Made by a program: the position numbers and the translations under genes
Shown here: in pieces, positions 133 through 52,946 of the stretch
Layout of the letters: each line of letters begins with the position of its first letter
How positions within the stretch are numbered: the first letter of the stretch is position 1
Notes under the pieces: generated by a model
Databases searched by the model: none
What the model saw: the letters and a program-made list of their open reading frames with translations, nothing else
What the model was told of the DNA's origin: nothing
Assembly: GCF_905237065.1 (NCBI RefSeq)
Contig: NC_059455.1
Span: 34,096,034 to 34,160,033 of the forward strand
Reading direction: 5' to 3'
Length of the DNA stretch: 64,000 nt
Source: Salmo salar
Taxonomy: Eukaryota

Positions 133-1235
133 TTACATTAAACTTGTGTGTGGATCCCCTGGGTATGCAGGTGCCACGTATTGAGACACTGCACTCTCTC
201 CTATGTGAGTTCTCTGATGTGACGTCATTTTGGAGCGCCGGGTGAAGCATTTCCCACACTGTGTGCACTCATACGGTTTCTCCCCACTGTGGACCATAGC
301 ATGTCTGATCAGATTGCACTGCTTGGTGAAACTCCTGCCACACTGTTCACAGGTGTACGGTTTCTCTCCGGTGTGACTCCGGAGGTGTTCTTTGAGCTGG
401 CAGAGACGCTGGAAGCTCTTCCCACAGAAGGTGCAGCTGAACCGCCTCTCGGTGGTGCCGCCTGATCTCCACTGAGTCCTCATTCTCTTCACCATGTTAA
501 AACTACTGTGACTCAGGCTGTATCCAGAGAAGGTGGAGGTGGTGGCCATGTTTGACCCTGTCGTGCACTCACTCAATCTCACAGTCGCTTCTGAAGCCCT
601 GTATTGATGCAGCCTTGGCTGTAGAGCTAAACTATTTCCTTCATTACTTGAATTCAGCATCTCACTGCTCTGTCCCTCTGGCATCTGTTGTCTAGTTTCA
701 TCAGCCAATGTCCCTACATGTCTTTTCATGTGTTTTGCAGCACTGAACATGTTAGCATGTGGTTTCCATATAGAAGAGTGAAGTGATGGCCCTACTTCAT
801 CTGTCATAGTAGGAACAGATGGCAGCCCACTATGAGATGGGAAAATTGAGATATTCTGAGAGTACTCTTCTGTGGAATGAAAGGAGAAATCTGGGTGGCC
901 ATCAGGGTCAGTGTCTCTGCCTGGATCCACAGAGGTCCACAGCTGCCCATCAGACTCATCCATAACAAACTGGTCAGGACCTGCCAGGGTCGTGGTCTGA
1001 TCCAGCTCCTCCTCTTTCACCATCACTAGCTCTAGTGAGTCCTCATCTGGCCGGTGCTGCGCTGTGCTGAACACCTCTGTAGATGTGAGCCGGGGTGTTC
1101 CTGGTTCCTTTGGACGATCAGAATTGGGGTAATGTTCCACTGAGTCTCTGGGAGATATATTGGTTTGTGTGATGAAGTCTTCATCACAGTGCCGTTGCTC
1201 AAAGGATGGTGGTTTCCCAGGCTTGGAACCAGATT
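133..1235 (-). CDS. ZNF paralog A, terminal exon (exon 3). It encodes an acidic/Ser-rich linker plus 3 C2H2 fingers and ends '...[24 protein letters not shown]'.
   Basis: ORF 133..1293 is on the minus strand. The finger motifs are '[23 protein letters not shown]', '[23 protein letters not shown]' and '[23 protein letters not shown]' with TGEKPY linkers. The putative acceptor 'ttatgtttatccccaaatctttag|AATCTGG' (minus strand) places the exon start at 1235. The same exon recurs at 10.8, 19.9 and 49.6 kb. Confidence 0.7.
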
Positions 1236-1399
1236 CTAAAGATTTGGGGATAAACATAAAATAAACATTACAAAAGACCCTTAACAGTTGCAAAATACGA
1301 CTGCTTTAAAACTGACTGTGTGTGTACGTGCACTCCATACGCCAGAACATGAAGCACCTAATTCCAATGTAGCAATTTGGAACGTGCATACCACCACAC

Positions 1400-1554
1400 A
1401 GTCTTCCATAGACAGACAGAGCAGTGCCCCTTATGGTCACACCCACCCTCTCCAGTGATCCTGAGCTCTTCCTGTGGGTCAGTCTTCCACACATCCTCTG
1501 CTGTCTCCTCATCTTTGATCAGTATGGGTTCAGTCTCCACTCTCTGCTCCACAT
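1400..1554 (-). CDS. ZNF paralog A, exon 2 ('DVEQRVETEPILIKDEETAEDVWKTDPQEELRITGEGGCDHKGHCSVCLWKT'). The donor position is uncertain.
   Basis: ORF 1358..1552 starts at GTG. The acceptor 'ccctgttacag|ATGTGGAG' gives phase 1, matching the exon-1 donor. The donor is probably 'AAGACT|GTGTGG' at 1400. That makes the exon 155 nt, which is not a multiple of 3. Confidence 0.35.
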
Positions 1555-2059
1555 CTGTAGGCTGTAACAGGGACTGAGGTTATTACTCTGGACACACACC
1601 ATATCTAACCCTTTTCATACTCATGAATCACACAAAAGTGATAAAATCTCCTGATAATCCAATATCAGAATTGATCCAAGAGGCCAGTCAGGTCTCTGTA
1701 ATTGTAAAAGGTGATGTATCAGACCTGGGGTTGAGAGTCCTCCTCAACAGCCAGCTCTTCGTCTCTGCACTGTGAGGTACTCCTCTGCTTGTTCAAAACA
1801 ATCTTGACTGGATATGAAGATCTCTCTGAAGCCACGGGGTAAAAACCTGGAAAATAATTGTTTTCTGTCAAATATTAGGCTATTCACACATTTGGGTTTT
1901 GCATATACAATTAATTTACTAGCCTGGAGATGCGACGTAAAATTTCCTTGAATTCTACATCAGGCATAAATGAGTGTCTGGATCAGGAAAGTTCTCTCAC
2001 GACCTCACAAGCCAGAATGTTGAATAAAATTATATTTTAACTTACTTTACCAGTTGTCA

Positions 2060-2365
2060 TTGTTCCTTTTGCTGGAAAGAAAAGCGGTACGGCAAGCGGT
2101 ACCGGAGTGCCAAGTCTGGGACCAAAAGACTCCTAAACAGCTTCTACCCACCAACCCATATGACTGCTGAATAGTTAATCAAATGGCTTCTCTGACTACT
2201 TGCACTGACTCTCTTGCACCGGCTCTATGCACACTCACACTCCAACACACACAACATAACACTACATAAGCTCACAAAACACACACTGACACTCACATAC
2301 GCCGCTACTACTCTGTATTATTTATCCTGATTGCCGTGTCACTTTTCCCCCTACCTGCATGTACA
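2060..2365 (+). mobile_element. L2-type LINE 3' fragment (end of ORF2 plus 3'UTR) lying in intron 1 of ZNF-A.
   Basis: The plus-strand translation '...KRYGKRYRSAKSGTKRLLNSFYPP...*' matches the salmonid L2 ORF2 C-terminus. The fragment runs up to the Tc1 insertion at 2366. Confidence 0.45.
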
Positions 2366-2367
2366 TA

Positions 2368-3954
2368 CAGTTGAAGTCGGAAGTTTACATACACCTTAGC
2401 CAAATACATTTAAACTCAGTTTCACAATTCCTGACATTTAATCATAGTAAATATTCCCTGTCTTAGGTCAGTTAGGATCACCACTTTATTTTAAGAATGT
2501 GAAATGTCAGAATAATAGTAGAGAGAATGATTTATTTGAGCTTTTATTTATTTCATCACATTCTCAGTGGATCAGAAGTTTACATACACTCAATTAGTAT
2601 TTGGTAGCATTGCCTTTAAATTGTTTAACTTGGGTCAAAACGGTTCAGATAGCCTTCCACAAGCTTCCACAATAAGTTGGGTGAATTTCGGCCCATTCCT
2701 CCTGACAGAGCTGGTGTAACTGAGTCAGGTTTTCAGTTTTGCCCACAAATTTTCTATGGGTTTGAGGTCAGGGATTTGTGATGGCAACTCCAATACCTTG
2801 ACTTTGCTGTCCTTAAGCCATTTTTCCACAACTTTGGAAGTATGTTTGGGGTCATTGTCCATTTGGAAGAGCCATTTGCGACCAAGCTTTAACTTCCTGA
2901 CTGATGTCTTGAGATGTTGCTTCAATATATCCACATCATTTTCTTGCCTCATGATGCCATCTATTTTGTGAAGTGCACCAGTCCCTCCTGCAGCAAAGCA
3001 CCCCACAACATGATGCTGCCACCCCCGTGCTTCACGATTGGGATGGTGTTCTTCGGCTTGCAAGCCTCCCCCTTTTCCCTCCAAACATAACGATGGTCAT
3101 TATGGCCAAACAGTTCTATTTTTGTTTCATCAGACCAGAGGACATTTCTCCAAAAAGTACGATCTTTGTCCCCATGTGCAGTTGCAAACCGTAGTCTGGC
3201 TTTTTTAATGGCAGTTTTGGAGCAGTGGTTTCTCCATGCTGAGCGGCCTTTCAGGTTATGTCGATATAGAACTCGTTTTACTGTGGATATAGATGCTTTT
3301 GTACCGGTTTCCTCCAGAATCTTCACAATGTCCTTTGCGGTTGTTCTGGGATTGATTTACACTTTTCGCACCAAAGTACGTTCATCTCTAGGAGACACAA
3401 TGCGTCTCCTTCCTGAGCGGTATGACGGCTGCGTGGTCCCATGGTGTTTATACTTGCCTACTATTGTTTGTACAGATGAACGTGGTACCTTCAGGCGTTT
3501 GGAAATTGCTCCTAAGGATGAACCAGACTTGTGGAGGTCTACAATTGTCTTTCTGAGGTCTTGGCTGATTTCTTTTGATTTTCCCATGATGTCAAGCGAA
3601 GAGGCACTGAGTTTGGAGGTAGGCCTTGAAATACATCCACAGGTACACCTCCAATTGACTGAAATGATGTAAATTAGCCTATCAGAAGCTTCTAAAGCCC
3701 TGACTTCATTTTCTGGAATTTTCCAAGCTGCTTAAAGGCACAGTCATCTTAGTGTATGTAAACGTCTGACCCACTGGAATTCTGAAACAGTGAATTATAA
3801 GTGAAATAATCTGTCTGTAAACAATTGTTGGAAAAATGACTTGTGTCATGCACAAAGTAAATGTCCTAACCGACTTGCCAAAATTTGTGAAGTGGTTGAA
3901 AAACGAGTTTTAATGACTCCAACCTAAGTGTATGTAAACTTCCGACTTCAACTG
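2368..3954 (-). mobile_element. Tc1-like (Sleeping-Beauty-type) DNA transposon, about 1.59 kb, with a frameshifted transposase on the minus strand.
   Basis: The terminal IR/DR 'cagttgaagtcggaagtttacatacac' is at 2368 and 'gtgtatgtaaacttccgacttcaactg' at 3954, each with a flanking TA. Minus-strand ORFs give 'MGKSKEISQDLRKTIVDLHKSGSSLGAISKRLKVPRSSVQTIV...', '...ISTVKRVLYRHNLKGRSA...' and '...[20 protein letters not shown]...LNPIENLW'. Confidence 0.9.
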
Positions 3955-4240
3955 TATTACCTCAACTACCTTGCACATTAACTATGTACCGGTACTCAAT
4001 GTATATAGTCTCATTATTGTTATTTATTGTGTTATTATTTTTAATCAAAACATTTTAGCAAATTGTTCTTACTTTTTAACTCTGCATTTTTGGCAAAGTG
4101 CTCATAAGTAAGCATTTCACGGTAAAGTCTACACCTGTTGTATTCGGCGCATGTGACAATCAAATATGATTGTGAGACAATATCCACAGGAAAGTATAAT
4201 TAAATCAACGTTTCAAAGCGTTCCCGAGCGCCGCAGCATC

Positions 4241-4395
4241 ACTACAGACCCTGGTTCGGTCCCGGGCTGTATCACAAACGGCTGTGATCGGGAGTCACAT
4301 AGGCCAACGCACAATTGGCCCAGCATCATCCGGGTTTAGTCGTCATTGTAAAATAAGAATTTGTTCTTAACTGACTTGCCTAGTTAAATAAATAG
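4241..4395 (+). repeat. tRNA-derived SINE, 5'-truncated, in plus orientation.
   Basis: It contains '...ccctggttcggtcccgggctgtatcacaaacggctgtgatcgggagtc...attgtaaaataagaatttgttcttaactgacttgcctagttaaataaa'. The same family occurs in reverse at 46020-46310. Confidence 0.55.
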
Positions 4396-4755
4396 TGCAT
4401 TCAAATTTCTATAACCTGAAGCATGCACAAAACCATACCGGAGTTTGGCAAGTATGCTGGTGGCGTGTATGTATTTTCAAATTGTGTGTATGCTGCAGGT
4501 GATCGAAAAATGAATAAACTACAAGTACTTTGAAAAGTTGATTTTATTATACTTTCCTGTGGCTCTCACACATTCCTACATGCCAATGGACCAACCGGTA
4601 AAGTAAATTAATCCATTTTTTTACATTCTGATTTGTAGAGATCGTGAGTCAACTTTCCTGATCCAAATGCTCATTTATGCCGGACGTTGAATACAATATA
4701 ATTCAACGTCGACGTTCCAGGCTATACATTTACCATACAAAATAACTAACAGTAC

Positions 4756-4960
4756 CTTTTCGTCTGCGCGTCTTCTGCAGCTCGCTCTCCATCATTTGAC
4801 ACTTCCTTTTCAGTACATCAATATCTCGCTGGCTTTGGGTCATTTCCAAACGTATAACAGCACAGCTATCATCTACACGTTTGTTTATTTCGGCTACGGC
4901 TGCTTTAGCTAATACCTCTAGAATGGATACCAATTGCGCCTGGAAATTGCAGTTCGCCAT
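4756..4960 (-). CDS. ZNF paralog A, exon 1. It holds the ATG and a conserved N-terminal helical domain 'MANCNFQAQLVSILEVLAKAAVAEINKRVDDSCAVIRLEMTQSQRDIDVLKRKCQMMESELQKTRRRK'.
   Basis: The ATG on the minus strand is at 4958-4960. The donor is 'CGAAAAG|GTACTG' in phase 1. Homologous exons occur at 12617-12830, 27421-27626 and 52407-52620. Confidence 0.6.
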
Positions 4961-8961: not shown

Positions 8962-9178
8962 AATGAGGAGCCCTTAACAGTCAAACATCAAAACCATTTC
9001 ACAAATAATTAGGAGGAAAAAGCTTGTCAAAATGTCTCAAAATACCTTATGTACCAAATTTTCCCATAGAAAAAGTTAGCAAAACAATGATGCAATTATT
9101 AACTTTGTTCCATCTGGTCTGAGACGACATTAAAATTCTGTGTGGATCCCCAGGGTATGCGGGTACCATATATTGAGA
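8962..9178 (-). pseudogene. Remnant of a fifth ZNF paralog. Only the 3' flank and the last roughly 17 codons ('...[18 protein letters not shown]') remain.
   Basis: Positions 8962-9178 align to the 3' flank and terminal coding bases of copies A-D ('...gtcaaaatgtctcaaaatacctt...gtgtggatccccagggtatgcgggtacc...'). Homology stops abruptly at 9178, where a Tc1-like fragment begins. Confidence 0.6.
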
Positions 9179-9425
9179 CGTTGGAGGCGGCTTATGGTAG
9201 AGAAATTCATATTGAATTATCTGGAAACAGCTCAGGTGGACATTTCTGCAGTCAGCATGCCAATTGCACACTCCCTCAAAACTTGAGACATCTGTGGCAT
9301 TGTGTTGTATGACAAAACTGCACATTTCAGAGTGGCCTTTTATTGTCCCCAGCACAAAGTGCACCTCTGTAATGATCATGCTTCTTGATATGCTACACCT
9401 GTCAGGTGGATGGATTATCTTAACG
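9179..9425. mobile_element. 3' terminal fragment of a second Tc1-like family, '...ggaggcggcttatggtagagaaat...cacctgtcaggtggatggattatctt...'.
   Basis: It is collinear with 45400-45640 of the fuller copy at 44080-45785. Confidence 0.6.
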
Positions 9426-10799: not shown

Positions 10800-11899
10800 T
10801 TACATTAAACTTGTGTGTGGATCCCCAGGGTATGCGGGTACCATGAATTGAGAACCTGGACTCTCTCCTATGTGAGTTCTCTGATGTGACGTCATTTTGG
10901 AGCGCCGGGTGAAGCATTTCCCACATTGTGTGCACTCATACGGTTTCTCCCCACTGTGGACCAGAGCATGTCTGATCAGGTTGCACTGCTGGGTGAAACT
11001 CCTGCCACACTGTTCGCAGGTGTACGGTTTCTCTCCGGTGTGACTCCGGAGGTGTACTTTAAGCTGGCAGAGACGCTGGAAGCTCTTCCCACAGAAGGTG
11101 CAGCTGAAACGCCTCTCGGTGGTGCCGCCCGACCACTGAGTCCTCATTCTCTTCACCATGTTAAAACTACTGCGACTCAGGCTGTATCCAGAGAAGGTGG
11201 AGGTGGTGGCCATGTTTGACCCTGTCATGCACTCACTCAATCGCACAGTCGCTTCTGAAGCCCTGTATTGATGCAGTCTTGGCTGTAGAGCTAAACTATT
11301 TCCTTCATTATTTGAGCTCAGCATCTCACTGCTCTGTCCCTCTGGCGTCTGTTGTCTAGTCTCATCAGCCAATGTCATGACATGTCTTTTCATGTGTTTT
11401 GCAGCACTGAACATGTTAGCATGTGGTTTTCCTATAGAAGAGTGAAGCGATGGCCCTACATCATCTGTCATAGTAGGAACAGATGGCAGCCCACTATGAG
11501 ATGGGAAAATTGAGATATTCTGAGAGTACTCTTCTGTGGAATGAAAGGAGAAATCTGGGTGGCCATCAGGGTCAGTGTCTCTGCCTGGATCCACAGAGGT
11601 CCACAGCTGCCCATCAGACTCATCCATAACAAACTGGTCAGGACCTGCCAGGGTCGTGGTCTGATCCAGCTCCTCCTCTTTCACCATCACTAGGTCTAGT
11701 GAGTCCTCATCTGGCCGGTGCTGCTCTGCGCTGAACACCTCTGTAGACGTGAGCTGGGGTGTGCCTGGTTCCTCTGGACGATCAGAATTTGGGTAATGTT
11801 CCACTGAGTCTCTGGGAGATATGTTGGGTTGTGTGATGAAGTCCTCATCACAGTGCCGTTGCTCAAAGGATGGTGGTTTCCCAGGCTTGGAACCAGATT
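10800..11899 (-). CDS. ZNF paralog B, exon 3 (linker plus 3 C2H2 fingers, '...[17 protein letters not shown]').
   Basis: ORF 10800..11921 is on the minus strand. The acceptor 'ccccaaaatctttag|AATCTGG' places the exon start at 11899, and the finger motifs match copy A. Confidence 0.75.
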
Positions 11900-12063
11900 C
11901 TAAAGATTTTGGGATAAACATAAATTAAACATTATAAAAGACCATTAACAGTTGCAAAATACGACTGCTTTAGAACTGACTGTGTGTGTACGTGCACTCC
12001 ATATGCCAGAACATGAAGCACCTGACAGCAATGTAGCAATTTGGAACGTGCATACCACCACAC

Positions 12064-12222
12064 CCTCAGTCTTCCATAGACAGACAGAGCAGTGCCCCTT
12101 ATGGTCACACCCACCCTCTCCAGTGATCCTGAGCTCTTCCTTAGGGTCAGTCTTCCACACATCCTCTGCAGTCTCCTCATCTTTGATCAGTATGGGTTCA
12201 GTCTCCACTCTCTGCTTCACAT
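12064..12222 (-). CDS. ZNF paralog B, exon 2 (159 nt, in frame).
   Basis: The acceptor is 'ctgttacagcctacag|ATGTGAAG' and the donor 'GACTGAGG|GTGTGG', both in phase 1. Splicing exons 1, 2 and 3 gives an uninterrupted roughly 490-aa ORF ('...RVRRK|DVKQRVETEP...CSVCLWKTE|[10 protein letters not shown]...'). Confidence 0.55.
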
Positions 12223-12616
12223 CTGTAGGCTGTAACAGGGACTGAGGTTATTACTCAGGACACACACCATATCTAACCGTTTTCATACTCATGAATCACA
12301 CGAAAGCGGTAAATTCCCCTGATATTCCAATAACAGAATTGATCCAACAGGCCAGCCAGGTCTCTATAATTGTAAAAGGTGATGTATCACACCTGGGGTT
12401 GAGAGTCCCCTTCAACAGCCATCTTGCTGTCTCTCCACTGTGAGTTACTCCTCTGCTTGTTCAAAACAATCTTGACTGGATATGAAGATCTCTCTGATAA
12501 CATGGGGTAAAAACCTGGAAAATAATTGTATTCAGTCAATTATTAGGATTATTCACACATTTGTGTTTTTATTCATTTGTTCATGATGCGATCAAATTAC
12601 CGTGAAGAACTACTAC

Positions 12617-12830
12617 CTTTTCTCCTGACTCGTCCTCGTGTCTTCTTCAGCTCGCTCTCCATCATTTGACACTTCCTTTTCAGTACATCAATATCTCGCT
12701 GGCTTTGGGTCATTTCCAAACGTATAACGGCACAGCTATCATCTACACGATTGTTTATTTCTGCTACAGCTGCTTTAGCTAATACCTCCAGAATGGATAC
12801 CAACTGCGCCTGAAAATTGCAGCTGGCCAT
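12617..12830 (-). CDS. ZNF paralog B, exon 1 ('MASCNFQAQLVSILEVLAKAAVAEINNRVDDSCAVIRLEMTQSQRDIDVLKRKCQMMESELKKTRGRVRRK').
   Basis: The ATG is at 12828-12830 on the minus strand and the donor is 'AGAAAAG|GTAGTAG' at 12617. Confidence 0.65.
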
Positions 12831-19913: not shown

Positions 19914-21016
19914 CTACATTAAACTTGTGTGTGGATCCCCAGGGTATGCAGGTGCCACGTATGGAGACACTGCATTCTCTCCTATGTGAGTTCTCTGATG
20001 TGATGTCATGTTAGAGCGCTGGGTGAAGCATTTCCCACATTGTGTGCACTCGAAGGGCTTCTCCCCACTGTGGACCACAGCATGTCTGATCAAGTTGCAC
20101 TGCTTGGTGAAACTCCTGCCACACTGTTCACAGGTGTACGGTTTCTCTCCGGTGTGACTCCGGAGGTGTACTTTGAGCTGGCAGAAACGCTGGAAGCTCT
20201 TCCCACAGAAGGTGCAGCTGAACCGCCTCTCGGTGGTGCCGCCTGATCTCCACTGAGTCCTCATTCTCTTCACCATGTTAAAACTACTGCGACTCAGGCT
20301 GTATCCAGAGAAGGTGGAGGTGGTGGCCATGTTTGACCCTGTCGTGCACTCACTCAATCTCACTGTTGCTTCTGAAGCCCTGTATTGATGCTGCCTTGGC
20401 TGTAGAGCTAAACTATTTCCATCATTATTTGAGTTCAGCATCTCACTGCTCTGTCCCTCTGGCATCTGTTGTCTAGTCTCATCAGCCAATGTCCTGACAT
20501 GTCTTGTCATGTGTTTTGCAGCACTGAACATGTTAGCATGTGGTTTCCATATAGAAGAGTGAAGCGATGGCCCTACATCATCTGTCATAGTAGGAACAGA
20601 TGGCAGCCCACTATGAGATGGGAAAATTGAGATATTCTGAGAGTACTCTTCTGCGGAATGAAAGGAGAAATCTGGGTGGCAGACAGGGTCAGTGTCTCTG
20701 CCTGGATCCACAGAGGTCCACAGCTGCCCATCAGACTCATCCATGACAAACTGGTCAGGTCCTGCCAGGGTTGTGGTCTGATCCAGCTCCTCCTCTTTCA
20801 CCATCACTAGCTCTAGTGAGTCCTCATCTGGCCGGTGCTGCTCTGTGCTGAACACCTCTGTAGATGCGAGCTGGGGTGTTCCTGGTTCCTCTGGACGATC
20901 AGAATTGGGGTAATGTTCCACTGAGTCTCTGGGAGATATATTGGGTTGTGTGATGAAGTCCTCATCACAGTGCCGTTGCTCAAAGGATGGTGGTTTCCCA
21001 GGCTTTGAACCAGACT
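19914..21016 (-). CDS. ZNF paralog C, exon 3 (3 C2H2 fingers, '...[22 protein letters not shown]').
   Basis: ORF 19914..20921 continues in frame, without a stop, to the acceptor 'ccccaaatcttag|AGTCTGG' at 21016. The 1-nt deletion relative to copy A falls on the intron side. Confidence 0.7.
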
Positions 21017-21173
21017 CTAAGATTTGGGGATAAAGATAAAATAAACATTACAAAAGACCCTTAACAGCAAAACATGACTGCTTTAGAACTGACTGTGTGT
21101 ACGTGCGCAACATATCCCAGAACATAAAACACCAATGTAGCAATTTGGAACGTGCATACCACCATACCCACAC

Positions 21174-21328
21174 AGTCTTCCATAGACAGACAGAGCAGTG
21201 CCCCTTATGGTCACACCCACCCTCTCCAGTGATCCTGAGCTCTTCCTGAGGGTCAGTCTTCCACACATCCTCTGCTGTCTCCTCATCTTTGATCAGTATG
21301 GGTTCAGTCTCCACTCTCTGCTCCACAT
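21174..21328 (-). CDS. ZNF paralog C, exon 2, with an uncertain donor.
   Basis: ORF 21048..21326 holds the acceptor 'ctgttacagcctacag|ATGTGGAG'. Copy C has a 6-nt insertion at the donor region relative to copy A, and copy D shares it. Confidence 0.35.
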
Positions 21329-22995: not shown

Positions 22996-23113
22996 ATGTG
23001 AGACAATATATCCCACAGGAAAGTATAATTACACTTTTCAAATCCAATCAACGGGACCTGAAAAACTGTAATATCCTATGTTTCTCAGAGTCGTGGCTGA
23101 ACAAGGACATGGA

Positions 23114-24595: not shown

Positions 24596-24599
24596 CGCT

Positions 24600-26178: not shown

Positions 26179-26179
26179 G

Positions 26180-32207: not shown

Positions 32208-35200
32208 GATAAATCAAATCAAATCAAATGTTATTTGTCACATGCGTCGAACACAACAGGTGTAGACCTTACAGTGAAATCCTTACTTACAAGCCCTTAA
32301 CCAACGATGCAGTTTTAAGAAAATACCTAAAAAATAAAAAGTAAAAAAAGTAAGAGATAAGAAAAACAAATAATTGAAGAGCAGCAGAAAATAACAATAG
32401 CAGGGCTATATACAGGGGGTACCGGTACAGAGTCAATGTGTCAATGTGCGGGGGCACCGGTGTCGAGGTATTTGAGATAATTATGTACATGCAGGTAGGG
32501 TTGTCAAAGTGGCTATGCATAGATAATAACAGAGAGTAGCAGCAGCAGCGTGGGGGGGGGGGGTTCAAATAGTCTGGGTTGCCATTTGATTAGCTGTTCA
32601 GAAGTATTATGGCTTGAGGGTAGAAGCTATAGCTGTAGCTATAGCTATGTTCAAGAGAAGCCTCTTGGATATAGACTTGGCGCTCCGGTACCGCTTGCCG
32701 TGCGGTAGCAGCGAAAACAGTCTATGACTAGGGTGGCTGGAGTCTTTGCCGATTTTTAGGGCCTTCCCCTGACACCGCCTGGTATAGAGGTCCTGGATGG
32801 CAGGAAGCTTGGCCCCTGTGATGTACTGGGCCATACGCACTACCCTCTGTAGTGCCTGCAGTTGGAGGCCTAGCAGTTGCCATACCAGGCAGTGATGCAA
32901 CCCGTCAGGATGCTCTCGATGGTGCAGCTGTAAAATCTTTAGAGGATCTGAGGACCCATGCCAAGTTTTTTCAGTCTCCTGAGGGGGGAATAGGTTTTGT
33001 CATGCCCTCTTCACGACTGTCTTGGTGTGCTTGGACAATGTTAGTTTGTTGTTGATGTGGACGCCAAGGAACTTGAAGCTCTCAACCTGCTCCACTACAG
33101 CCCCATCGATGAAAATGGGGGCATGCTCGGTCCTCTTTTTCCTGTAGTCCACAATCATCTCCTTTGTCTTGATCACGGTGAGGGAGAGGTTGTTGTCCTT
33201 GCACCACATGGTCAGGTCTCTGACCTCCTCCCTATAGGCTGTCTCATCGTTGTCGGTGATCAGGCCTACCACTGTTGTGTCATCAGCAAACTTAATGATG
33301 GTGTACCTTAGTAAGACTGACTATCCTACCGATCCTCGACTTCGGCGATGTCATCTACAAAATAGCTTCCAATAGACTACATTCAATTTGCTGAGTAGAG
33401 TATCACAGTGCCATCCGTTTTGTTACCAAAGCGCTTTATACCATCCACCACTGCGACCTGTATGCTCTAGTCGGCTGGCCCTCGCTACATATTCGTCGCC
33501 AGACCCAATGGCTCCAGGTCATCTATAAGTCTATGCTAGGTAAAGCTCCGCCTTATCTCAGCTCACTGGTCACGATAACAACACCCACCCGTAGCACGCG
33601 CTCCAGCAGGTATATCTTACTGGTCATCCCCAAAGCCAACACCTCCTTTGGCCGCCTTTACTTCCAGTTCTCTGCTGCCAGTGACTGGAAAGAATTGCAA
33701 AAATCGCTGAAGCTGGAGACTTACATTTCCCTTACTAACTTTAAACATCAGCTATCTGAGCAGCTAACCGATCGCTGCAGCTGTACATAGTCCATCTGTA
33801 AATAGCCCACCCAATCTACCTACCTCATCCCCATATTGTTTTTATTTACTTTGCTGCTCTTTTGCATACCAGTATCACTACTTACACACCATCATCTGCT
33901 CATCTATCACTCCAGTGTTAATCTGCTAAATTGTAATTACTTTGCTACTATGGCCTATTTATTGCCTTACCTCCTCATGCCATTTGCACACACTGTATAT
34001 AGACTTTCTTTTTTCTATTGTGTTATTGACTGTACGCTTGTTTATTCCATGTGTTATTGTTTCTGTCGCACTGCTTTGCTTTATCTTGGCCAGGTCGCAG
34101 TTGTAAATGAGAACTTGTTCTCAACTAGTTTACCTGGTTAAATAAAGGTGAAATCAAATTAAATAAAAAATGATGGTTTTGAAGTTGTGCCTGGTCGTGC
34201 AGTCATGAGTGAACAGGGAGTACAGGAGGGGACTGAGCACGCACCCCTGAGGGGCCCACGTGTTGAGGATCAGCGTGGCAGATGGGTTGTTACCTACCCT
34301 TACCACCTGGGGCGGCCCATCAGGAAGTCCAGGATCCAGTTGCAGAGGGAGGTGTTTAGTCCCAGGGTCCTTAGCTTAGTGATGAGTTTTGAGGGCACTA
34401 TGGTGTTGAACGCTGAGCGGTAGTCAATGAATAGCATTCTCACATAGGTGTCCTTTTGTCCAGGTGGGAAAGGGCAGTGTGGAGTGCAATAGAGATAGCA
34501 TCATCTGTGGATCTGTTGGTGCGGTATGCAAATTGGAGTGGGTCTAGGGTTTCTGGGATAATGGTGTTGATGTGAGCCATGACCAGCCTTTCAAAGCATT
34601 TCATGGCTACAGACGTGAGTGCTACGGATCGGTAGTCATTTAGGCAGGTTACCTTAGTGTTCTTGGGCACAGGGACTATGGTGGTCTGCTTGAAACATGT
34701 TGGTATTACAGACTCAGACAGGGAGAGGTTGAAAATGTCAGTGAAGACACTTGCCAGTTGGTCAGCGCATGCTCGGAGTACACGTCCTGGTAATCCGCCT
34801 GGCCCAGCGGCCTTGTGAATGTTGACCTGTTTGAAAGTCTTACTCACATCGGCTGCGGAGAGCGTGATCACACAGTCATCTGGAACAGTTGGTGCTCTCA
34901 TGCCTGTTTCAGTGTACTTGCCTAGAAGCGAGCACAGAAGTTATTTAGGTCATCTGGTAGGCTCGTGTCACTGGGCAGCTCTCGGTTGTGCTTCCATTTG
35001 TAGTCTGTAATAGTTTGCAAGCCCTACGACATCCAATGAGCGTCGGAGCCGGTGTAGTACGATTCGATCTTAGTCCTGTATTGATGCTTTGCCTGTTTGA
35101 TGGTTCGTTGGAGGGCATAGCGGGATTTCTTATAAGCTTCCGGGTTAGAGTCCCGCTCCTTGAAAGCGACAGCTCTACCCTTTAGCTCAGTGCGAATGTT

Positions 35201-39243: not shown

Positions 39244-41385
39244 TCACCTGTCTTTTGTGATTGTCTCCATCCCCCTCCAGGTGTCGCCCATCTTCCCCAT
39301 TATCCCCTGTATATTTATACCTGTGGTCTCTGTTTGTCTGTTGCCAGTTCGTTTTGTTTCGTCAAGCCTACCATCGTTTTCTCCTCTGCTCCTGTCTCTT
39401 GATTGTTCCTGTTTCCTAGTTTCCCCGGTGTTGACCATTCTGCCTGCCCTGACCCTGAGCCTGCCGTCCTGTACCTTTGCCCCACCTATCTGGATTACTG
39501 ACCTCTGCCTGCACTTGACCCGTCTTTTGCCTGCACCTGTTCGATTAATAAACTGTTGTTACTTCGACGTTGTCTGCATCTGGGTCTTACCTGAAACGTG
39601 ATAGTACGAACTGGCCATGCCTGACCAGGCAGACTCGGACAAGCTGCGCAACACCATCTCCTCCCAAGGAGCCACCATTGGTAGGCACGAGGAATTGCTT
39701 CGTGGCCTTATGGAGGGGGTCTATACCTTGGCCGAACGCCATGCCCATGGACATCCTGCTGGAGAAATTCCGGGGGTTGGTTGGGAGGCAGCCTACTATG
39801 ACAGTAACCTCACAGCCCCTCAGTAACTCAGCACTTAGCAGCGCAGCCTCATCGGTCACTCCGCCTTCCCGGGAGCCCCGCTTACCTCCCCCGGAACGCT
39901 TCAATGGAGAGCCGGGCACCTGTCAGGGGTTTCTAGCTCAGTGTGCCCTCATCTTCAAGCTTCAGCCCTCCTCCTTCCCCTTGGACCACTCTAAGATAGC
40001 GTACCTAATCACGCTGATGTCCGGGAGGGCGCTCGCCTGGGCTACAGCTGTATGGGAGCAACAGCTGTCCATATGCGTCAGTCTGGAGGAGTTCATGGGA
40101 GAAGTAAAGAAGGTGTTTGATGCCCCATTCTCCGGAAGAGAGGCTACCCAGAAGCTACTCCAGCTTCGGTAGGATTTCCGAATGTTGGCAGCTGAGAGTG
40201 CCAGGAACCAGGAAGCGCTGTTCGACATGTTCCTACACGAAGTCTCGGAGGAGGTCCAGGACGAGCTTGCAGCCCAGGAATTACAGATAGATCTCGATTC
40301 CCTCATCGCCTTGACCATCAGGATCATTGGGTGACTACGGGAACGACAGAGGGAGAGGAGATTCGATTTTGCTCACCCGTCCAAGGATTCAACCTCACCT
40401 CCGAGGCATCCCGGAAGTCCCTGACAGCCCCGTTGCCGAGAGAAGCTGAGGCTACCCGAGGTTCCCCGAGAGTTGCCAAAGACGGCCGAGTCACCATTTC
40501 CCGAGCCTATGTAACGTCTTCCTAGCGGCTCGGAAGTTGCCCCGGACCTCTCCGCCATTCCTGCTGAGTACCAGGACCCTCGGGAGGTGTTCAACAAGGC
40601 CCGGGCCACTTCGCTTCCGCTACACCGACCATATGACTGCGGGATTGACCTTCTACCTAGCACCACTCCACTCCAGGGACGACTGTACTCGCTGTTGATA
40701 CCGAAGACCAAGGCTATGGAGACCTACATTGGGGACTCCCTAGCTGCAGGATTTACGGGCTCAGGGCCAAGACCCTGAGCCCGTGCATCGACTACCGGGG
40801 ACTCAATGACATAACGGTTAAGAACCGCTACCCGCTACCACTCATCTCCTCGGCCTTCGAGCCACTCCAGGGGGCCACCGTGTTTTCCAAGCTGGATCTA
40901 TGGAACGCCTACCACCTGGTGCGGACACAGGAGGGGGATGAGTGGAAGACCGCTTTCCACACAGCCAGCGGCCACTACGAGTATTTGGTCATGCCATTTG
41001 GCTTTACCAACGCCCCTGCTGTGTTCCAGGCTTTGGTAAATGATGTTCTCCATGACATGTTGAGCTAGTTCGTCTTCATTGATGACATCCTCCTCTTCTC
41101 CCGCTCCCCCCAAGAACATGTGCTCCACGTCCGACAGGTTATTCAACGCCTCCTGGAGAATCAGCTGTTTTTAAAGGCAGAGAAGTCTGAGTTCCATCGC
41201 TCCACCATCCCCTTTCTGGGGTACATCATCTCTGCTCGGAGTGTCTAGATGGATCCCGGGAAGGTGAGAGCGGTGGTGGATTGGCCCCAGCCTACGTCCA
41301 GGTTGCAGCGGCAACGTTCGCTGGGGTTCGCCAACTTTTATCGTCACTTTATCCAGGGTTACAGCACAACAGTTTGTGGGTACCA
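39244..41385 (+). mobile_element. Ty3/gypsy-type LTR retrotransposon holding a 5' LTR/leader, gag, protease and the N-terminal half of RT. It is 3'-truncated.
   Basis: gag reads 'MPDQADSDKLRNTISSQGATIGRHEELLRGLMEG...PPERFNGEPGTCQGFLAQCALIFKLQPSSFPLDHSKIAYLITLMSGRALAWATAVWEQQ...VKKVFDAPFSGREATQKLLQLR'. RT reads '[60 protein letters not shown]' and '...[31 protein letters not shown]'. The coding signal ends near 41385, just before the Tc1 at 41492. Confidence 0.8.
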
Positions 41386-42721
41386 TTTGTCACCATTATA
41401 GTGCAATTAATGTATTGTTTAGTGTTGTGTTGTGGCTTTGCTGGCATGCGTCAACAACAAAAAAATGGGGAGTTTGCCCCACCAAGATGCACAGTTGAAT
41501 TCAGAAGTTTACATACACCTTAGACAAATACATTTAAACTCCGTTTTTCACAATTCCTGACATTGAATCCTAGTAAAAATGTATTTCAGCTTTCATCTCT
41601 TTCATCACATTCCCAATGGGTCAGAAGTTTACATACACTCAATTAGTATTTGGTAGCATTGCCTTTAAATTGTTTAACTTGGGTCAAACATTTCGGGTAG
41701 ACTTCCACAAGCTTCCACAATAAGTTGGGTGAATTTTGGCCCATTCCTCCTGACAGAGCTGGTGTAACTGAGTCAGGTTTGTAGGCCTCCTTGCTCGCAC
41801 ACGCCTTTTCAGTTCTGCCCACAAATTTTCTATAGGATTGAGGTCAGGGCTTTGTGAGGTCAGGGCTTTCCAATACCTTGACTTTGTTGTCCTTAAGCCA
41901 TTTGCCACAACTTTGGAAGTATGCTTGGGGTCATTGTCCATTTGGAAGACCCATTTGCGACCAAGCTTTAGCTTCCTGACTGATGTCTTGAGATGTTGCT
42001 TCAATATATCCACATCATTTTCTTGCCTCATGATGCCATCTATTTTGTGAAGTGCACCAGTCCCTCTTGTAGCAAGCACCTCCACAACATGATGCTGCCA
42101 CCCCCGTTCTTCACGGTTGGGATGGTGTTCTTCGGCTTGCAAGCCTCCCCTCCTCCTCCAAACATAACGATGGTCATTATGGCCAAACAGTTCTATTTTT
42201 GTTTCATCAGACCAGAGGACATTTCTCCAAAAAGTACAATCTTTGTCCCCATGTGCAGTTGCAAACAGTAGTCTTGGTTTTTTATGGCGGTTTTGGAGCA
42301 GTGGCTTCTTCCTTGCTGAGCGGCCTTTCAGCTTATGTCGATATAGGACTTGTTTTACTGTGGATATAGATACTTTTGTACCTGTTTCCTCCAGCATCTT
42401 GCCAAGGTCCTTGGCTGTTGTTCTGGGATTGATTTGCACTTTTCGCACCAAAGTACGTTCAACTCTAGGAGACAGAATGCGTCTCCTTCCTGAGCGGTAT
42501 GACGGCTGCGTGGTCCCATGGTTTTTATACTTGCATACTATTGTTTGAACAGATGAACGTGGTACCTTCAGGCGTTTGGAAATTGCTCCCAAGGATGAAC
42601 CAGACTTGTGGAGGTCTACAATTTTTTTTCTGAGGTCTTGGCTGATTTCTTTTGATTTTCCCATGATGTCAAGCAAAGAGGCACTGAATTTGAAGGTAGG
42701 CCTTGAAATACATCCACAGGT

Positions 42722-43274
42722 TGTAATGGAAATTATATGATTAAAGGTTTGACTAAATTATTTCACCCTGAAAATGTATAACCGAGTGATTATAAGATGA
42801 ATGTACTAATGTGTGTGTGTGTGTGTGTGTGTAGGAAAAGTTTAAGCTTAATGATTTAGCAATGTAAGTAAGACATTCAAGGAAAAGGGGAACTTTTAAC
42901 AGACAGCAGACAACTTGTGAAACTGATAAACAGGAACGTCTCCCCACCCAGGGAGGGGAGAAACCTTTAGGGTTGCAGTAGATTATGTAACATGGGGCAG
43001 GATATGATACGCAATGTATGTGATGGAGAAGACTTGTAAATTAGCATTGACAGTGTTAAAGAAGAGGAGGAGCATTTGTAAGCGGTATGACATATGGTAT
43101 GACCAAATGTTAGGTATAAAAGGCTGTGTACATTGTATGATATTCAGAGCTGACTATTGTAAGCTGGGTCTCCGTCTGCTTCATTCAACCATAATCTTAC
43201 AAGTTCTGGGATATAGACTGAGTAGATTAATTGAAGTTCAGTTTAAGAACATTGGGAAGAGAATTCCCATAACA
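42722..43274. mobile_element. Putative solo LTR of 553 bp (TG...CA termini with a 5-bp TSD) nested in the Tc1 at 41492-43606.
   Basis: The insert begins 'tgtaatgg' and ends 'cccataaca'. It is flanked by direct 'caggt' at 42717-42721 and 43275-43279, and the Tc1 consensus 'catccacaggtacacctcc' is restored when the insert and one TSD copy are removed. It has an internal TATA-like 'aggtataaaaggctg' and a (GT)11 run. Confidence 0.5.
42811..42832. repeat. (GT)11 microsatellite.
   Basis: The run 'gtgtgtgtgtgtgtgtgtgtgt' is visible directly. Confidence 0.95.
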
Positions 43275-48560: not shown

Positions 48561-49084
48561 ACCATTCTGAAAATGTGGTATGGTATTTATTAAAGTATAG
48601 AAAAAAGTATAGAACTTGTTTGAAACACAGCTGGCAAACAAAGACCATAATCTACTTTCATGTAAACTTAATTTCATGATATATTTCAAGTAACTATTGA
48701 TGCATTATAGCTGATTTACATTGAGGTTCTTTACTTAGGGTTTTTAAGGCACATACATAAACACTCCCCTACTACTTATTCAGACAGTGAAGCTAAAACT
48801 TTTTATTTTGGCAAATTGACTCTTTCATTAAATATATGTTATTGAATATAGCATGGTTTTTATGATTTTATGATACAAATATACATTACCAGTTGAAAAT
48901 AGGTTGTTGAAATGAAAGTGAGGAGCCGTCAACAGTCAAACATGAAAAATCAAATCAATTTAGAGGAAAAGCTTGTCATAATGTCTCAAAATACCTTCTG
49001 TAACACATTTTTACATAGAAAGTGTTACTGGAAAACTATGCAATTATTAACTATTTGTTTCACCTGGTTTGAGACAACATTAAA

Positions 49085-49645
49085 GAGCGACTGAACACAC
49101 TAATTCCACATTTCTCTGTTGCTCTTTAAGAAAAAACAGATTTCAGACTTGAAGGTGTGGTTCGATGTGGCAGTTAATAATGTTTGTCCCCCATGAGACA
49201 CCATAGGAACGATGCCAGTATTATGAATCTAAGATAACTCAAGAAGTCCAACTTGGACGTTTTTGCAGAGGAGATTTTAGTTGCGTAATTTTACATATAG
49301 TTAAGATGTTTGGCGCTGTATTTCTCAAGTTAAACAAAATGCAAACAAAGTGAGATGGGCAGGTGTGTCTCAACAGCTGTGTGTTCTACGGTGGATTGGA
49401 TAGAGCGCAATCACCACAGCTGTGTATCCGGTGTTAATGGGCAAGTGAGCATTGTTAAAATCAAAACCCAACCCTAAAGTAAGTTGTCAAACTTACTTAC
49501 AAAACTCAGTTTTGGATGAGACTGAATTTATGAACACAATTATTCTATTTACAATTTTGACAATAGAATAAATGTTTCTGACTCATCGGTGCTACATAGG
49601 CCTTTTTATATCAGAAGATGTTTATTGCCTTCAGTTGCGCTTTAA
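49085..49645. repeat. Insertion of about 560 bp specific to paralog D, lying exactly at the last codon of exon 3.
   Basis: Copies A, B and C read '...gagattacattaaacttgtgtgtggatcccc'. Copy D reads '...gagacaacattaaa[gagcgactgaacacac...cttcagttgcgct]ttaaacttgtgtgtggatcccc'. The termini are weakly inverted (agagcgactgaa versus ttcagttgcgct). The class is unknown. Confidence 0.35.
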
Positions 49646-50739
49646 ACTTGTGTGTGGATCCCCAGGGTATGCAGGTGCCACGTATTGAGATACTGGACTC
49701 TCTCCTATGTGAGTTTTCTGATGTGACTTCATGCTGGAGCGCTGAGTGAAGCATTTCCCACACTGTTTACACTCGAAGGGCTTCTCCCCGCTGTGGACTA
49801 CAGCATGTCTGATCAAGTTGCACTGCTGGGTGAAACTCCTGCCACACTGTTCGCAGGTGTACGGTTTCTCTCCGGTGTGACTCCGGAGGTGTACTTTGAG
49901 CTGGCAGAAACGCTGGAAGCTCTTCCCACAGAAGGTGCAGCTGAAACGCCTCTCGGTGGTGCCGCCTGATCTCCACTGAGTCCTCATTCTCTTCACCATG
50001 TTAAAACTACTGTGACTCAGGCTGTATCCAGAGAAGGTGGAGGTGGTGGCCATGTTTGACCCTGTCGTGCACTCACTCAATCTCACTGTTGCTTCTGAAG
50101 CCCTGTATTGATGCTGCCTTGGCTGTAGAGCTAAACTATTTCCAGCATTATTTGAGTTCAGCCTTTCGCTACTCTGTCCCTCTGGCATCTGTTGTCTAGT
50201 CTCATTAGCCAATGTCCTGACATGTCTTTTCCTGTGTGCTGCTGCACTGAACATGTTAGCATGTGGTTTTCCTATAGAAGAGTGAAGCGATGGCCCTACA
50301 TCATCTGTCATAGTAGGAACAGATGGCAGCCCACTATGAGATGGGTAAATTGAGATATTCTGAGAGTACTCTTCTGCGGAATGAAAGGAGAAATCTGGGT
50401 GGACATCAGGGTCAGTGTCTCTGCCTGGATCCACAGAGGTCCACAGCTGCCCATCAGACTCATCCATGACAAACTGGTCAGGACCTGCCAGGGTCGTGGT
50501 CTGATCCAGCTCCTCCTCTTTCACCATCACTAGGTCTAGTGAGTCCTCATCTGGCCGGTGCTGCTCTGCGCTGAACACCTCTGTAGATGTGAGCTGGGGT
50601 GTGCCTGGTTCCTCTGGACGATCAGAATTGGGGTAATGTTCCACTGAGTCTCTGGGAGATATATTGGGTTGTGTGATGAAGTCCTCATCACAGTGCTGTT
50701 GCTCAAAGGATGGTGGTTTCCCAGGCTTGGAACCAGATT
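49631..50739 (-). CDS. ZNF paralog D, exon 3 (3 C2H2 fingers). The C-terminus is altered to '...[14 protein letters not shown]'.
   Basis: ORF 49631..50797 is on the minus strand, and the acceptor 'ccccaaatctttag|AATCTGG' places the start at 50739. The last codon is changed by the insertion at 49085-49645. Confidence 0.7.
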
Positions 50740-50900
50740 CTAAAGATTTGGGGATAAACATAAAATAAACGTAACAAAAGACCCTTAACAGTTGCAAAAC
50801 ATGACTGCTTTAGAACTGACTGTGTGTCCGTGCGCTACATATCCCAGAACATAAAACACCAATGTAGCAATTTGGAACGTGCATACCACCATACCCACAC

Positions 50901-51055
50901 AGTCTTCCATAGACAGACAGAGCAGTGCCCCTTATGGTCACACCCACCCTCTCCAGTGATCCTGAGCTCTTCCTGAGGGTCAGTCTTCCACACATCCTCT
51001 GCTGTCTCCTCATCTTTGATCAGTATGGGTTCAGTCTCCACTCTCTGCTCCACAT
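50901..51055 (-). CDS. ZNF paralog D, exon 2, with an uncertain donor.
   Basis: ORF 50835..51131 covers it. The exon has the same 6-nt variant as copy C at the donor region. Confidence 0.35.
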
Positions 51056-51179
51056 CTGTAGGCTGTAACAGGGGACTGAGGTTATTACTCTGGACACACC
51101 ATTTCGAACGCTTTTCATACTCATAATTCACACAAAAGCAGTAAATTCTCCTGATATTCCAATAACAGAATTGATCCTA

Positions 51180-52140
51180 GAGGTCAGGGGCCTCATTTAA
51201 AACCGTGCGTACGTACAATATATACCCCAAAACATGTGTGGCCAGTTTTCACACAAAAGTTGGCATTTATAAAAACCTAACTTGGCCAGAGAATGTGCTC
51301 ACCTTCCCGCAAAAGTTAGACCATGCCAATGCAGTTTCTATGTGGTTGAAGCATTGCATTGCAAGCAGGCAAGTAGCCTAGTATTTCTTGCAAACGCGGG
51401 TTAAGATGGTTATGTTTGTTCATAACAAATAACAGGTTAATAACAAGATACAATCGTTTGCCGTTAGTGAGAAGAGAACATCAATTTCGTTTATCTTCGT
51501 ATTATAAAATAATTAGAAATAGGCATTTGCCTAGGCTATTATTTATTTAATTTCCATGATCATTGCAGATTAAATTCATCACCTTTTCTGTGATGGTTTC
51601 ATACTCATCAGGTAGCCTACAGGCCTACAACAAGTTAGATACCATTCTCCGTCTCTCATTTAATTGGCCCACTTCACAGTAGTAAATAGATAAGCTATTT
51701 CAAGTATTTTGCTCTATGCCATCTGATCCAGAGCACAGTTTAACAATAGAACAAACGATTGTAGACTACTTCTGTACTGTCTGAAAAACTGTAATTCAAC
51801 ATTTCTCCAGTAGACAATATTTAATTTGTAAACATAATAGATATTTTCATAACCTTGCCAGAATAAATCCCTCACCTTTTCTGCCCATTTTGGGTTCATA
51901 TTCATGAAGTATCCTAAAACAAATTACCACGGCATCTCTCATTTAATTGGGCCTATTGAATATACCACGGCTTTCAAACAATCAGTTTATAATGCTCGAT
52001 CACACACGCACTGTTTCACGACGGGTCTGATGTATACCTGGAAATATCGTGTGCGCCAAGTTTATGAATTTATATATGTTTGTATATGCGCAGTCTTGTC
52101 AGTAATGGCACACGCAGATAGTGTTAAATGAATGCAACAG
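51180..52140. repeat. Intronic insertion of about 960 bp specific to paralog D, with 'caggggcctc' inverted termini.
   Basis: Copies A and B read 'cagaattgatccaagaggccag.caggtctctgtaattgtaaaag'. Copy D reads 'cagaattgatcctagaggt[caggggcctcattt...cgaggcccctg]gatttctgtaattgtaaaatg'. Confidence 0.35.
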
Positions 52141-52406
52141 TTACGAGGCCCCTGGATTTCTGTAATTGTAAAATGTGATGTATCACACCTGGGGTTGAGA
52201 GTCCTCTTCAACAGCCAGCTCTTCGTCTCTCCACTGTGAGTTACTCTGCTTGTTCAAAACAATCTTGACTGGATATGAAGATCTCTCTGATGCCACGGGG
52301 TAAAAAACTGGAAAACAATTCTATTCAGTCAAATATTCACTCGTGTTTTTCTTCAGTTGCTCCATGATGCAATCAAATGACCATGAATAAGAACACATCT
52401 ATATAC

Positions 52407-52620
52407 CTTTTCTTCTGACTCGTCCTCGTGTCTTCTTCAACTCGCTCTCCATCATTTGCCACTTCCTTTTCAGTACATCAATATCTCGCTGGCTTTGGGT
52501 CATTTCCAAACGTATAACAGCACAGCTATCATCTACACGTTTGTTTATTTCTGCTACAGCTGCTTTAGCCAATACCTCCATAACGGATACCAACTGCGCC
52601 TGAAAATTGCAGCTGGCCAT
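52407..52620 (-). CDS. ZNF paralog D, exon 1 ('MASCNFQAQLVSVMEVLAKAAVAEINKRVDDSCAVIRLEMTQSQRDIDVLKRKWQMMESELKKTRGRVRRK').
   Basis: The ATG is at 52618-52620 on the minus strand and the donor is 'GAAAAG|GTATATA'. Confidence 0.6.
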
Positions 52621-52823
52621 CTTGTCCAGCCCAGTATTCTCTGTTATTAAGTAAATATGTTACAATTATGTAACTAGCCAATGTGCAATAAATAATAAAT
52701 TAATACAAAATTCTTACACTATGGCAAATGTTGATATTGGCCAAATTTGGCATATGTAAGAGATCGATTAAGGCCAAAAATGTTTCAAGTAAGAGATGGG
52801 TGCGTAATCACACTTCCGTTCAA

Positions 52824-52875
52824 CTCGTGACGTAAATATTTATTACCGTAAATATGAGACTGCAACAACCCTTCA
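52824..52875 (-). promoter_or_regulatory. Conserved upstream module of ZNF-D, including a cAMP-response-element (CRE)-like 'tgacgtaa'.
   Basis: The module 'ctcgtgacgtaaatatttattaccgtaaatatgagactgcaacaacccttc' lies about 210 bp upstream of the ATG. Confidence 0.3.
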
Positions 52876-52946
52876 AAATTGGTAGAATTTAGCGCTGGCA
52901 AGGCAATTTCTTCTTTTTTTACGCTTTAGTCACACAGGCGCCATTT

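Follow-up and report, generated by a model that had tools for sequence, protein, structure and literature searches.

A tandem array of four-exon genes encoding three C2H2 fingers and a conserved N-terminal helix in Atlantic salmon

Introduction

In vertebrates, new transcription-factor specificities arise mainly from zinc-finger clusters that are specific to a lineage. Among fishes, the cyprinid FiNZ family is, to our knowledge, the only such family that has been studied. Here, we describe a 64-kb stretch of the Atlantic salmon (Salmo salar) genome (assembly GCF_905237065.1, contig NC_059455.1, positions 34,096,034–34,160,033; hereafter, the window), which carries a tandem array of genes for proteins with three C2H2 fingers behind a conserved N-terminal domain. 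It is probable, in our judgment, that this array arose when a conserved teleost gene was duplicated in tandem long ago in salmonids, and that its four-exon genes, encoding a coiled coil, a disordered region and three fingers, are ordinary transcription regulators. The locus would represent a route different from that of FiNZ: a conserved gene, apparently single-copy in other teleosts, whose product combines a coiled coil with three fingers underwent tandem amplification on each of the two homeologous chromosomes, with change focused on the DNA contacts. To a specialist the finding will not be very surprising, and the gene cluster is a fairly ordinary one. Its most interesting by-product is the N-terminal domain, which is widespread in fish and unnamed in domain databases.

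The FiNZ domain is a glutamate-rich, acidic domain of 28 amino acids (aa) that is specific to cyprinids. FiNZ genes consist of two exons, one for the domain and one for the finger array; the arrays are long (at least 5 fingers were required by the authors' filter), and about 700 FiNZ-ZNF copies were described, many of them under positive selection (Wells et al. 2023, PMC10547256). Like these, the salmon genes form a fish-specific C2H2 family, are clustered in tandem and share a conserved module other than KRAB at the N-terminus. They differ in having a basic helix of 70 aa, four coding exons and three fingers, in evolving under purifying selection, and in the teleost-wide occurrence of their domain. 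An identity with FiNZ was rejected, as the N-terminal domain departs from FiNZ in size, charge, exon organization and taxonomic range, as judged from the published description of FiNZ.

The KRAB-ZNF genes of tetrapods and the "KRAB-like" ZNF genes proposed for ray-finned fish are also C2H2 genes that occur in clusters, have expanded in particular lineages and encode an effector module at the N-terminus (PMC9101882; PMC11603059). The actinopterygian KRAB-like proteins are defined by TRIM33 binding and by an N-terminal KRAB-like domain, for which A25, L27, Q29, R37, L45, E48 and L49 are the key residues in eel (Carotti et al. 2022, PMC9101882; PMC11603059). Membership in the KRAB-ZNF family was rejected for the salmon genes, for which no KRAB match was obtained even at E ≤ 1. 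When registers were tried by eye from the residue list alone, no placement was found for the KRAB-like key residues, either on the salmon domain or on two homologs, one from eel and one from tarpon (P0274, P0238).

Proteins of the SCAN, BTB and ZAD types offer another parallel, in that a self-association module ahead of the finger array would allow paralogs to form homo- and heterodimers. Several homologs of the salmon proteins are in fact named "zinc finger and SCAN domain-containing" in RefSeq. The salmon domain differs from these modules in giving no Pfam match at E ≤ 1 and in its predicted fold, which is one long helix; its dimerization is inferred.

Results and Discussion

Organization of the gene array

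Based on a tblastn search with the full protein, the 64-kb window contains exactly four full copies of the gene, designated A to D, and one C-terminal fragment (9104–9184), with no further match. The protein E-values of the repeat matches go down to 0.0, which places the repeat far above chance. In agreement with the initial annotation, the diagnostic peptides occur solely at 0.1–5.0, 10.8–12.8, 19.9–27.6 and 49.6–52.6 kb, and all four copies and the remnant are co-oriented on the minus strand.

The exon structure had to be revised. The genes had been described as having three exons, while each of them comprises four coding exons; an exon of 119–122 nt, encoding "GFYPMLSERSSYPVKIVLNKQRS...DSQPQ" and located between the previous exons 1 and 2, had been missed in all four copies. 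Alignment to the best database match, P0003 (516 aa), revealed the missing segment of 41 residues. The three-exon models do give open frames of 471–476 aa, yet they were rejected because they lack the 41-aa exon and use another acceptor for the next exon. In the four-exon models (a slash marks each junction), exon 1 ends at AAAAG/GTA in phase 1, exon 2 extends from TTTTCCAG/ to CCCCAG/GTGTGA, exon 3 extends from TTACAG/CCTACAG to GAGAGG/GTGGGT ("...RITGE"), and exon 4 begins past TCTTTAG/. The peptide "GGCDHKGHCSVCLWKT", formerly given as the end of exon 2, turned out to be read-through into intron 3. A splice donor after "CLWKT" was rejected, as there is no GT in the correct phase at this point. 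All four proteins are 514–518 aa long, and the length of roughly 490 aa proposed for the copy B product is corrected to 516 aa.

Copy A (133–4960, minus strand, 514 aa) has coding exons at 4756–4960, 1725–1846, 1447–1561 and 133–1235 (including the stop codon), the second interval in this copy and in those that follow being the previously missed exon. Its intron 1 of 2909 nt contains remnants of a Tc1-like transposase at about 2.7–3.7 kb. Copy B (10800–12830, minus strand, 516 aa) has coding exons at 12617–12830, 12393–12514, 12115–12229 and 10800–11899 and introns of 102, 163 and 215 nt. Copy C (19914–27626, minus strand, 514 aa) has coding exons at 27422–27626, 21478–21599, 21221–21335 and 19914–21016, and its intron 1 of 5822 nt harbors Tc1/mariner transposase fragments (HTH, 22453–23028; DDE, 23318–24010). 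Finally, copy D (49631–52620, minus strand, 518 aa) has coding exons at 52407–52620, 52189–52307, 50948–51062 and 49631–50739, with intron 2 enlarged to 1126 nt.

The open reading frames (ORFs) are intact and the splice sites are canonical (GT–AG) in all four copies. Letter for letter, the four-exon models are identical to four separate RefSeq proteins of Salmo salar: XP_013996197.2 ("zinc finger protein 333") for A, XP_013996192.2 ("oocyte zinc finger protein XlCOF8.4") for B, XP_013996196.1 ("zinc finger protein 333-like") for C and XP_013996188.2 for D. The genes at this locus are, then, already in the public annotation. Their names are misleading, however: "ZNF333", "XlCOF8.4" and "SCAN domain-containing" reflect finger similarity alone. 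The possibility that the copies are pseudogenes was rejected given their intact ORFs, their distinct flanks and the separate RefSeq protein for each.

According to the initial annotation, coding identity between the copies is high and the introns differ. This holds for intron 1 (99–5822 nt) and for intron 2 of copy D, but not for the short introns 2 and 3, which are 92–97.5% identical compared with 89–100% for the exons. Salmonid genomes are repeat-rich and partly tetraploid, and we therefore considered whether haplotigs or mis-assembled repeats might mimic a tandem array. Nothing in the data speaks for such an artefact, which is hardly credible here. The copies differ by 4–8% in nucleotides, in the length of intron 1 and in their transposable element (TE) insertions, and the flanks have diverged both upstream and downstream. 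Moreover, every copy corresponds to a RefSeq protein of its own, and for most copies the nearest relatives in other species are different ones.

The array is not confined to the window. Three further members (P0130, P0140 and P0145) are located on the same 101,980,477-bp chromosome as A–D and do not map to the window at >94%, so the array is larger than the window; on this chromosome of Atlantic salmon, it comprises no fewer than seven paralogs. Two other members (P0045 and P0047) are located on a second chromosome of 105,780,080 bp, and this sister array is probably the homeolog derived from the salmonid whole-genome duplication (WGD).

Two further observations concern splicing. Use of a second acceptor within exon 2, 21 nt from its start (TATCAG/AGAGATC; 12494–12514 in copy B and equivalent positions in the other copies), would give the form "...RRK-ERSSYP...", which is the annotated one in the paralogs P0130, P0045 and P0047; this acceptor is likely to be an alternative 3' splice site, as judged from the sequence. 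In addition, a possible acceptor was noted about 20 nt upstream of the ATG (CACAG/AGAATAC or AACAG/AGAATAC; about 12850 in B and about 52640 in D), which suggests a putative untranslated upstream exon. Upstream similarity between the copies fades within about 50–300 nt.

Architecture of the encoded proteins

The proteins consist of a long N-terminal helix of ~70 aa with coiled-coil heptads, an acidic disordered region of ~330 aa and three C2H2 fingers. The structure was predicted by AlphaFold2 as a monomer from a 33-sequence alignment, and the mean predicted local distance difference test score (pLDDT) of the model was 50.7. In this model, residues 3–68 form a single continuous helix (pLDDT 94–97), residues 73–410 are disordered, and the C-terminus folds into three beta-beta-alpha fingers (pLDDT 80–89). 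The fingers are tandem C-x2-C-x12-H-x3-H units that match zf-H2C2_2 (E = 1.1e-17) and zf-C2H2 (E = 1e-14) above the curated cut-offs. They were the only part of the protein recognized in a Pfam search at E ≤ 1, in which no KRAB (PF01352), SCAN (PF02023), BTB, ZAD or other N-terminal family was found.

The N-terminal domain is basic (isoelectric point (pI) 9.3–9.9), and its helix is closed by the basic run KKTRGRVRRK. One heptad register can be followed through residues 19–71; 69% of its a/d positions are hydrophobic, and Asn occupies an a position. A profile search of the PDB with this domain gave weak, generic coiled-coil matches alone, the best having E = 0.003. The helix is most likely a dimerization module, as suggested by the model and the heptad pattern.

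With a pI of about 4.7, the middle region is acidic; it contains 35% S/T/P/Q and carries two psi-K-x-E motifs of the SUMO-consensus type. The alignment of 33 teleost sequences has invariant columns at three residues of the first motif (I, K and E) and at the V of the second. The region may have a regulatory function in which these SUMO-type motifs take part.

Distribution of the gene and its N-terminal domain in teleosts

A search with the finger-less part of the protein (residues 1–366) retrieved about 60 salmonid clusters at 76–90% identity and full-length orthologs from Osmerus, Polymixia and many percomorphs at 30–44% identity. For Osmerus and many of the percomorph matches, query coverage was 100% (E = 1e-69 to 1e-25). 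In herrings, characins, catfishes and eels, the N-terminus alone aligned, with 65–77% identity. The Osmerus ortholog carries the name of the zebrafish gene si:ch211-155e24.3, and the salmon proteins belong to the same ortholog group, since they are collinear over the full length and share invariant columns in all three modules of the 33-sequence alignment. Proteins of this type, uncharacterized in smelt, percomorphs, herrings and catfishes, have in common with the salmon ones the N-terminal helix (65–77% identical), the motifs IKxE, VKxE, DGQLW and RRMRTxWRSG, and three fingers with the same linker pattern. Outside salmonids, however, there is one match per species and the contacts are nearly invariant, whereas in salmon the genes form tandem arrays on two chromosomes and the contacts are recoded.

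With few exceptions, each non-salmonid species appears once in the hit list, which suggests that the gene may be single-copy in these teleosts. In the same alignment, the non-salmonid fingers are almost invariant (FMRFSQLKEH, FTKQCNLIRH and FTQRSSLKSH). An apparently single-copy gene with almost invariant fingers fits an ordinary sequence-specific regulator with a fixed target.

When the N-terminal domain alone (71 aa) was used as the query, at least 624 representative proteins (clustered at 50% identity) matched it at E ≤ 1e-3 among the 1.84 billion sequences searched. C2H2 fingers were present in 31 of 65 sampled carriers, and no other Pfam family recurred; among the 25 most frequent of the 33 Pfam families found in this sample, there was no KRAB and no SCAN. 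All 20 spot-checked carriers were teleost proteins, from tarpons, eels, halosaur, elephantfish, herrings, carp, knifefish, opah and handfish. Several of them are fused models of adjacent genes, which suggests that tandem clusters occur in eels too. These results bear out the earlier description of a conserved non-KRAB N-terminal module joined to three fingers. As the module occurs widely with C2H2 fingers in teleosts, the refuting result named in that description, a lack of such co-occurrence in other fish genomes, was not obtained. The domain is a common teleost companion of zinc fingers for which there is no Pfam model. In a literature search, no paper describing it was found, and there was nothing relevant under the zebrafish ortholog name, under "XlCOF8.4" with Atlantic salmon, or for a teleost zinc-finger-associated coiled-coil domain.

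Given this distribution, a more far-reaching proposal can be made, although only tentatively. The ~70-aa helix might be an undescribed, teleost-wide oligomerization or effector domain associated with zinc fingers, with a role like that of SCAN, BTB or ZAD. The salmonid arrays that followed the WGD would then use it to form paralog heterodimers with recoded contacts, giving either combinatorial DNA recognition or a new system of TE- or virus-directed silencing parallel to KRAB and FiNZ.

Phylogeny and selection

The age of the duplications was assessed from a neighbour-joining tree (71 full-length proteins, with Osmerus as the root and 100 bootstraps). In this tree, the salmonid sequences split into two clades, and in every species each clade has a chromosome of its own, which is consistent with homeologous arrays that date from the salmonid genome duplication. 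Copies A–D never pair with one another. Copy B groups with proteins of Oncorhynchus gorbuscha and Salvelinus namaycush (bootstrap 89%), copy C with a Salmo trutta protein (98%; 97.5% identity to this partner) and copy D with 11 Oncorhynchus and Salvelinus proteins (77%), next to a Coregonus protein (61%). Copies A, C and D share 94.6–95.0% identity with proteins of other genera compared with 92–94% with their neighbors in the window. The tree and these identities indicate that the duplications predate the split between Salmo and Oncorhynchus/Salvelinus, and the proposal of a recent expansion is not sustained, given that the copies never pair, that B, C and D have partners in other species, and that A, C and D are closer to other genera. 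As far as can be judged from these sequences, the array probably formed after the WGD.

Selection was estimated from pairwise Nei–Gojobori values among A–D, as the ratio (omega) of nonsynonymous (dN) to synonymous (dS) substitution rates. For the whole gene, dN/dS was 0.26–0.40 (dS 0.10–0.13). It was 0.06–0.25 in the N-terminal exon (dS 0.10–0.31), 0.11–0.23 in the fingers (dS 0.11–0.27) and 0.32–0.58 in the disordered middle (dS 0.05–0.08). The copies are kept under purifying selection.

These same values bear on another explanation of the similarity among the copies, namely that gene conversion is ongoing or the duplication recent, and that some of the copies are functionally redundant or decaying instead of being distinct genes retained over the long term. 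This would account for introns 2 and 3 being as identical as the exons, for the low dS in the central 1 kb (0.05–0.08) compared with the gene ends (0.10–0.31), for the premature stop that A, B and C have in common relative to the other paralogs, and for the weak bootstrap of the deep nodes and of copy A. We nevertheless find it very unlikely. Intact ORFs and canonical splice sites are present in every copy, and omega of about 0.3, falling to 0.06–0.25 in the two structured domains, reveals constraint. Furthermore, the grouping of B, C and D with proteins of other species is well supported, and each copy possesses its own TE insertions and flanks.

It should be noted that several points speak against an old, retained array of dimeric regulators. 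Copy A is weakly placed in the tree (45–50% bootstrap), and copy B is about equidistant from its paralogs and from the proteins of other species. The similarity of introns 2 and 3 to that of the exons and the uneven dS, lower in the middle than in exon 1 and the finger region, suggest gene-conversion tracts among the paralogs, which are able to distort both the tree and the dating. No Esox ortholog was among the matches retrieved, and the single-copy status outside salmonids is derived from a protein hit list. Finally, the AlphaFold2 model is that of a monomer, and the coiled-coil or dimeric state is a putative one.

Variation in the fingers

The finger variation was compared between a salmonid set of 30 distinct sequences from 81 proteins and a non-salmonid set of 29 distinct sequences from 46 orthologs. 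In salmonids, mean entropy was 0.54 at the base-contacting helix positions −1, 2, 3 and 6 versus 0.16 elsewhere (one-sided Mann–Whitney p = 0.012). In the non-salmonid orthologs, it was 0.34 at the contacts versus 0.48 elsewhere, a difference that was not significant. Among copies A–D, four of the 10 variable finger-region positions are contacts (finger F1 +6, F2 −1, F3 −1 and F3 +3). The recoded contacts in salmon are F1 +2 (S>C/W), F1 +6 (E>V), F2 −1 (K>Q), F3 −1 (Q>R) and F3 +3 (S>K/G/N). The pN/pS ratio was 0.77 at contact codons versus 0.16 at non-contact finger codons, although the counts are small. Taken from the sequences, this pattern supports a putative divergence of DNA specificity among the paralogs; the signal is real but modest, and omega > 1 was not reached.

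The concentration of variation at the contacts could also be expected of a TE-repressor family engaged in an arms race, like KRAB-ZNF or the cyprinid FiNZ-ZNF, in which the N-terminal module recruits a silencing cofactor and the fingers track salmonid transposons. The location of the tandem arrays, in TE-rich DNA of two chromosomes, is in line with this idea, as are the entropy and pN/pS contrasts given above, the conserved psi-K-x-E motifs, which are typical of repressive SUMO sites, and the tandem, often fused, eel gene models with the same N-terminal domain. On balance, however, this explanation has little support, and we consider it unlikely. The proteins have three fingers alone, a fixed number with no gain or loss, and omega is below 1 everywhere, contact codons included. 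Instead of turning over, the paralogs were retained across genera, and the non-salmonid orthologs show one match per species with near-invariant contacts. The basic, single long helix is unlike the acidic KRAB or FiNZ domains. In addition, nothing in the window links any paralog to any TE.

We return to the view that these genes are probably ordinary regulators and suggest the following course of events. The ancestral gene would have been single-copy with almost invariant fingers, as in non-salmonid teleosts. In salmonids, it was probably amplified in tandem before Salmo, Oncorhynchus and Salvelinus diverged, and the copies would have been kept by purifying selection. A few base-contacting residues were then presumably recoded, so that the paralogs probably read slightly different sites of ~9 bp. 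It is possible that the paralogs pair with one another through the common coiled coil.

The 3' ends of the copies and the remnant

The remnant (8969–9184, minus strand) consists of the last ~27 codons and about 130 nt of the 3' flank of a paralog. By blastn, it was detected at 8969–9178 with 74% DNA identity to copy B. It keeps a longer ancestral tail, without the stop codon common to A, B and C.

This stop codon is TAA in A (133–135), TAA in B (10800–10802) and TAG in C (19914–19916), and the position is occupied by a Leu codon in other paralogs and by a Ser codon in the remnant (9104–9184). Past the stop, the DNA of A, B and C still encodes SQNRWN, which indicates that the eight-residue tail "LSQNRWNK" was lost through a common nonsense change or gene conversion. 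In copy D, homology to the other copies breaks at the last codons (49631–49645), where the C-terminus is altered to "SLKRN", and the 3' flank common to the copies resumes at 48924–49059, about 580 bp downstream of the break. Copy D may thus carry an insertion where its coding region ends.

Transposable elements and other features of the window

The TE-rich setting of the genes noted in the initial annotation was confirmed by TE-derived sequences in both introns and spacers. Inside the genes, the TE-derived coding sequences found are confined to introns. Fragments of Tc1/Sleeping-Beauty-like transposases occur in intron 1 of A and C and also in several spacers, and the ORFs identified in the spacers that were scanned are all derived from TEs. 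The Tc1/mariner, long interspersed nuclear element (LINE) and gypsy sequences read as passive insertions, bystanders that are not evidence on gene function.

In the 21.6-kb spacer between copies C and D (28000–49600), TE-derived ORFs alone were found, along with several large ORFs without a Pfam match. The former include a LINE reverse-transcriptase (RT) fragment (34443–34940, minus strand) and Ty3/gypsy gag (39552–40169) and RT (40661–41065) sequences, both on the plus strand. The spacer also contains a near-intact Tc1/Sleeping-Beauty-like transposase ORF (41687–42757, minus strand; 357 aa from stop to stop), which begins at the canonical MGKSKEISQDLRKKIVDLHKSGSS and matches HTH_SB, HTH_Tnp_Tc3_2 and DDE_3. 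Its C-terminus differs from the Sleeping Beauty ending, and so this transposase copy is probably inactive.

Downstream of copy D, a Tc1-like transposase fragment, more LINE and non-LTR (long terminal repeat) sequences and two tRNA-derived short interspersed nuclear elements (SINEs) were identified. The two SINEs (53147–53302 and 60651–60809, minus strand) are tRNA-Ala-like, and each is followed, after a few tens of bases, by a UnaL2 LINE 3' element (L2-type tails). A perfect tandem repeat of 30 nt × 9.1 copies (55429–55702; 100% matches) adjoins a 27/54-nt repeat (56608–56811). The latter lies inside a 335-aa ORF (55829–56833, plus strand) that has no Pfam match and may be part of a retroelement.

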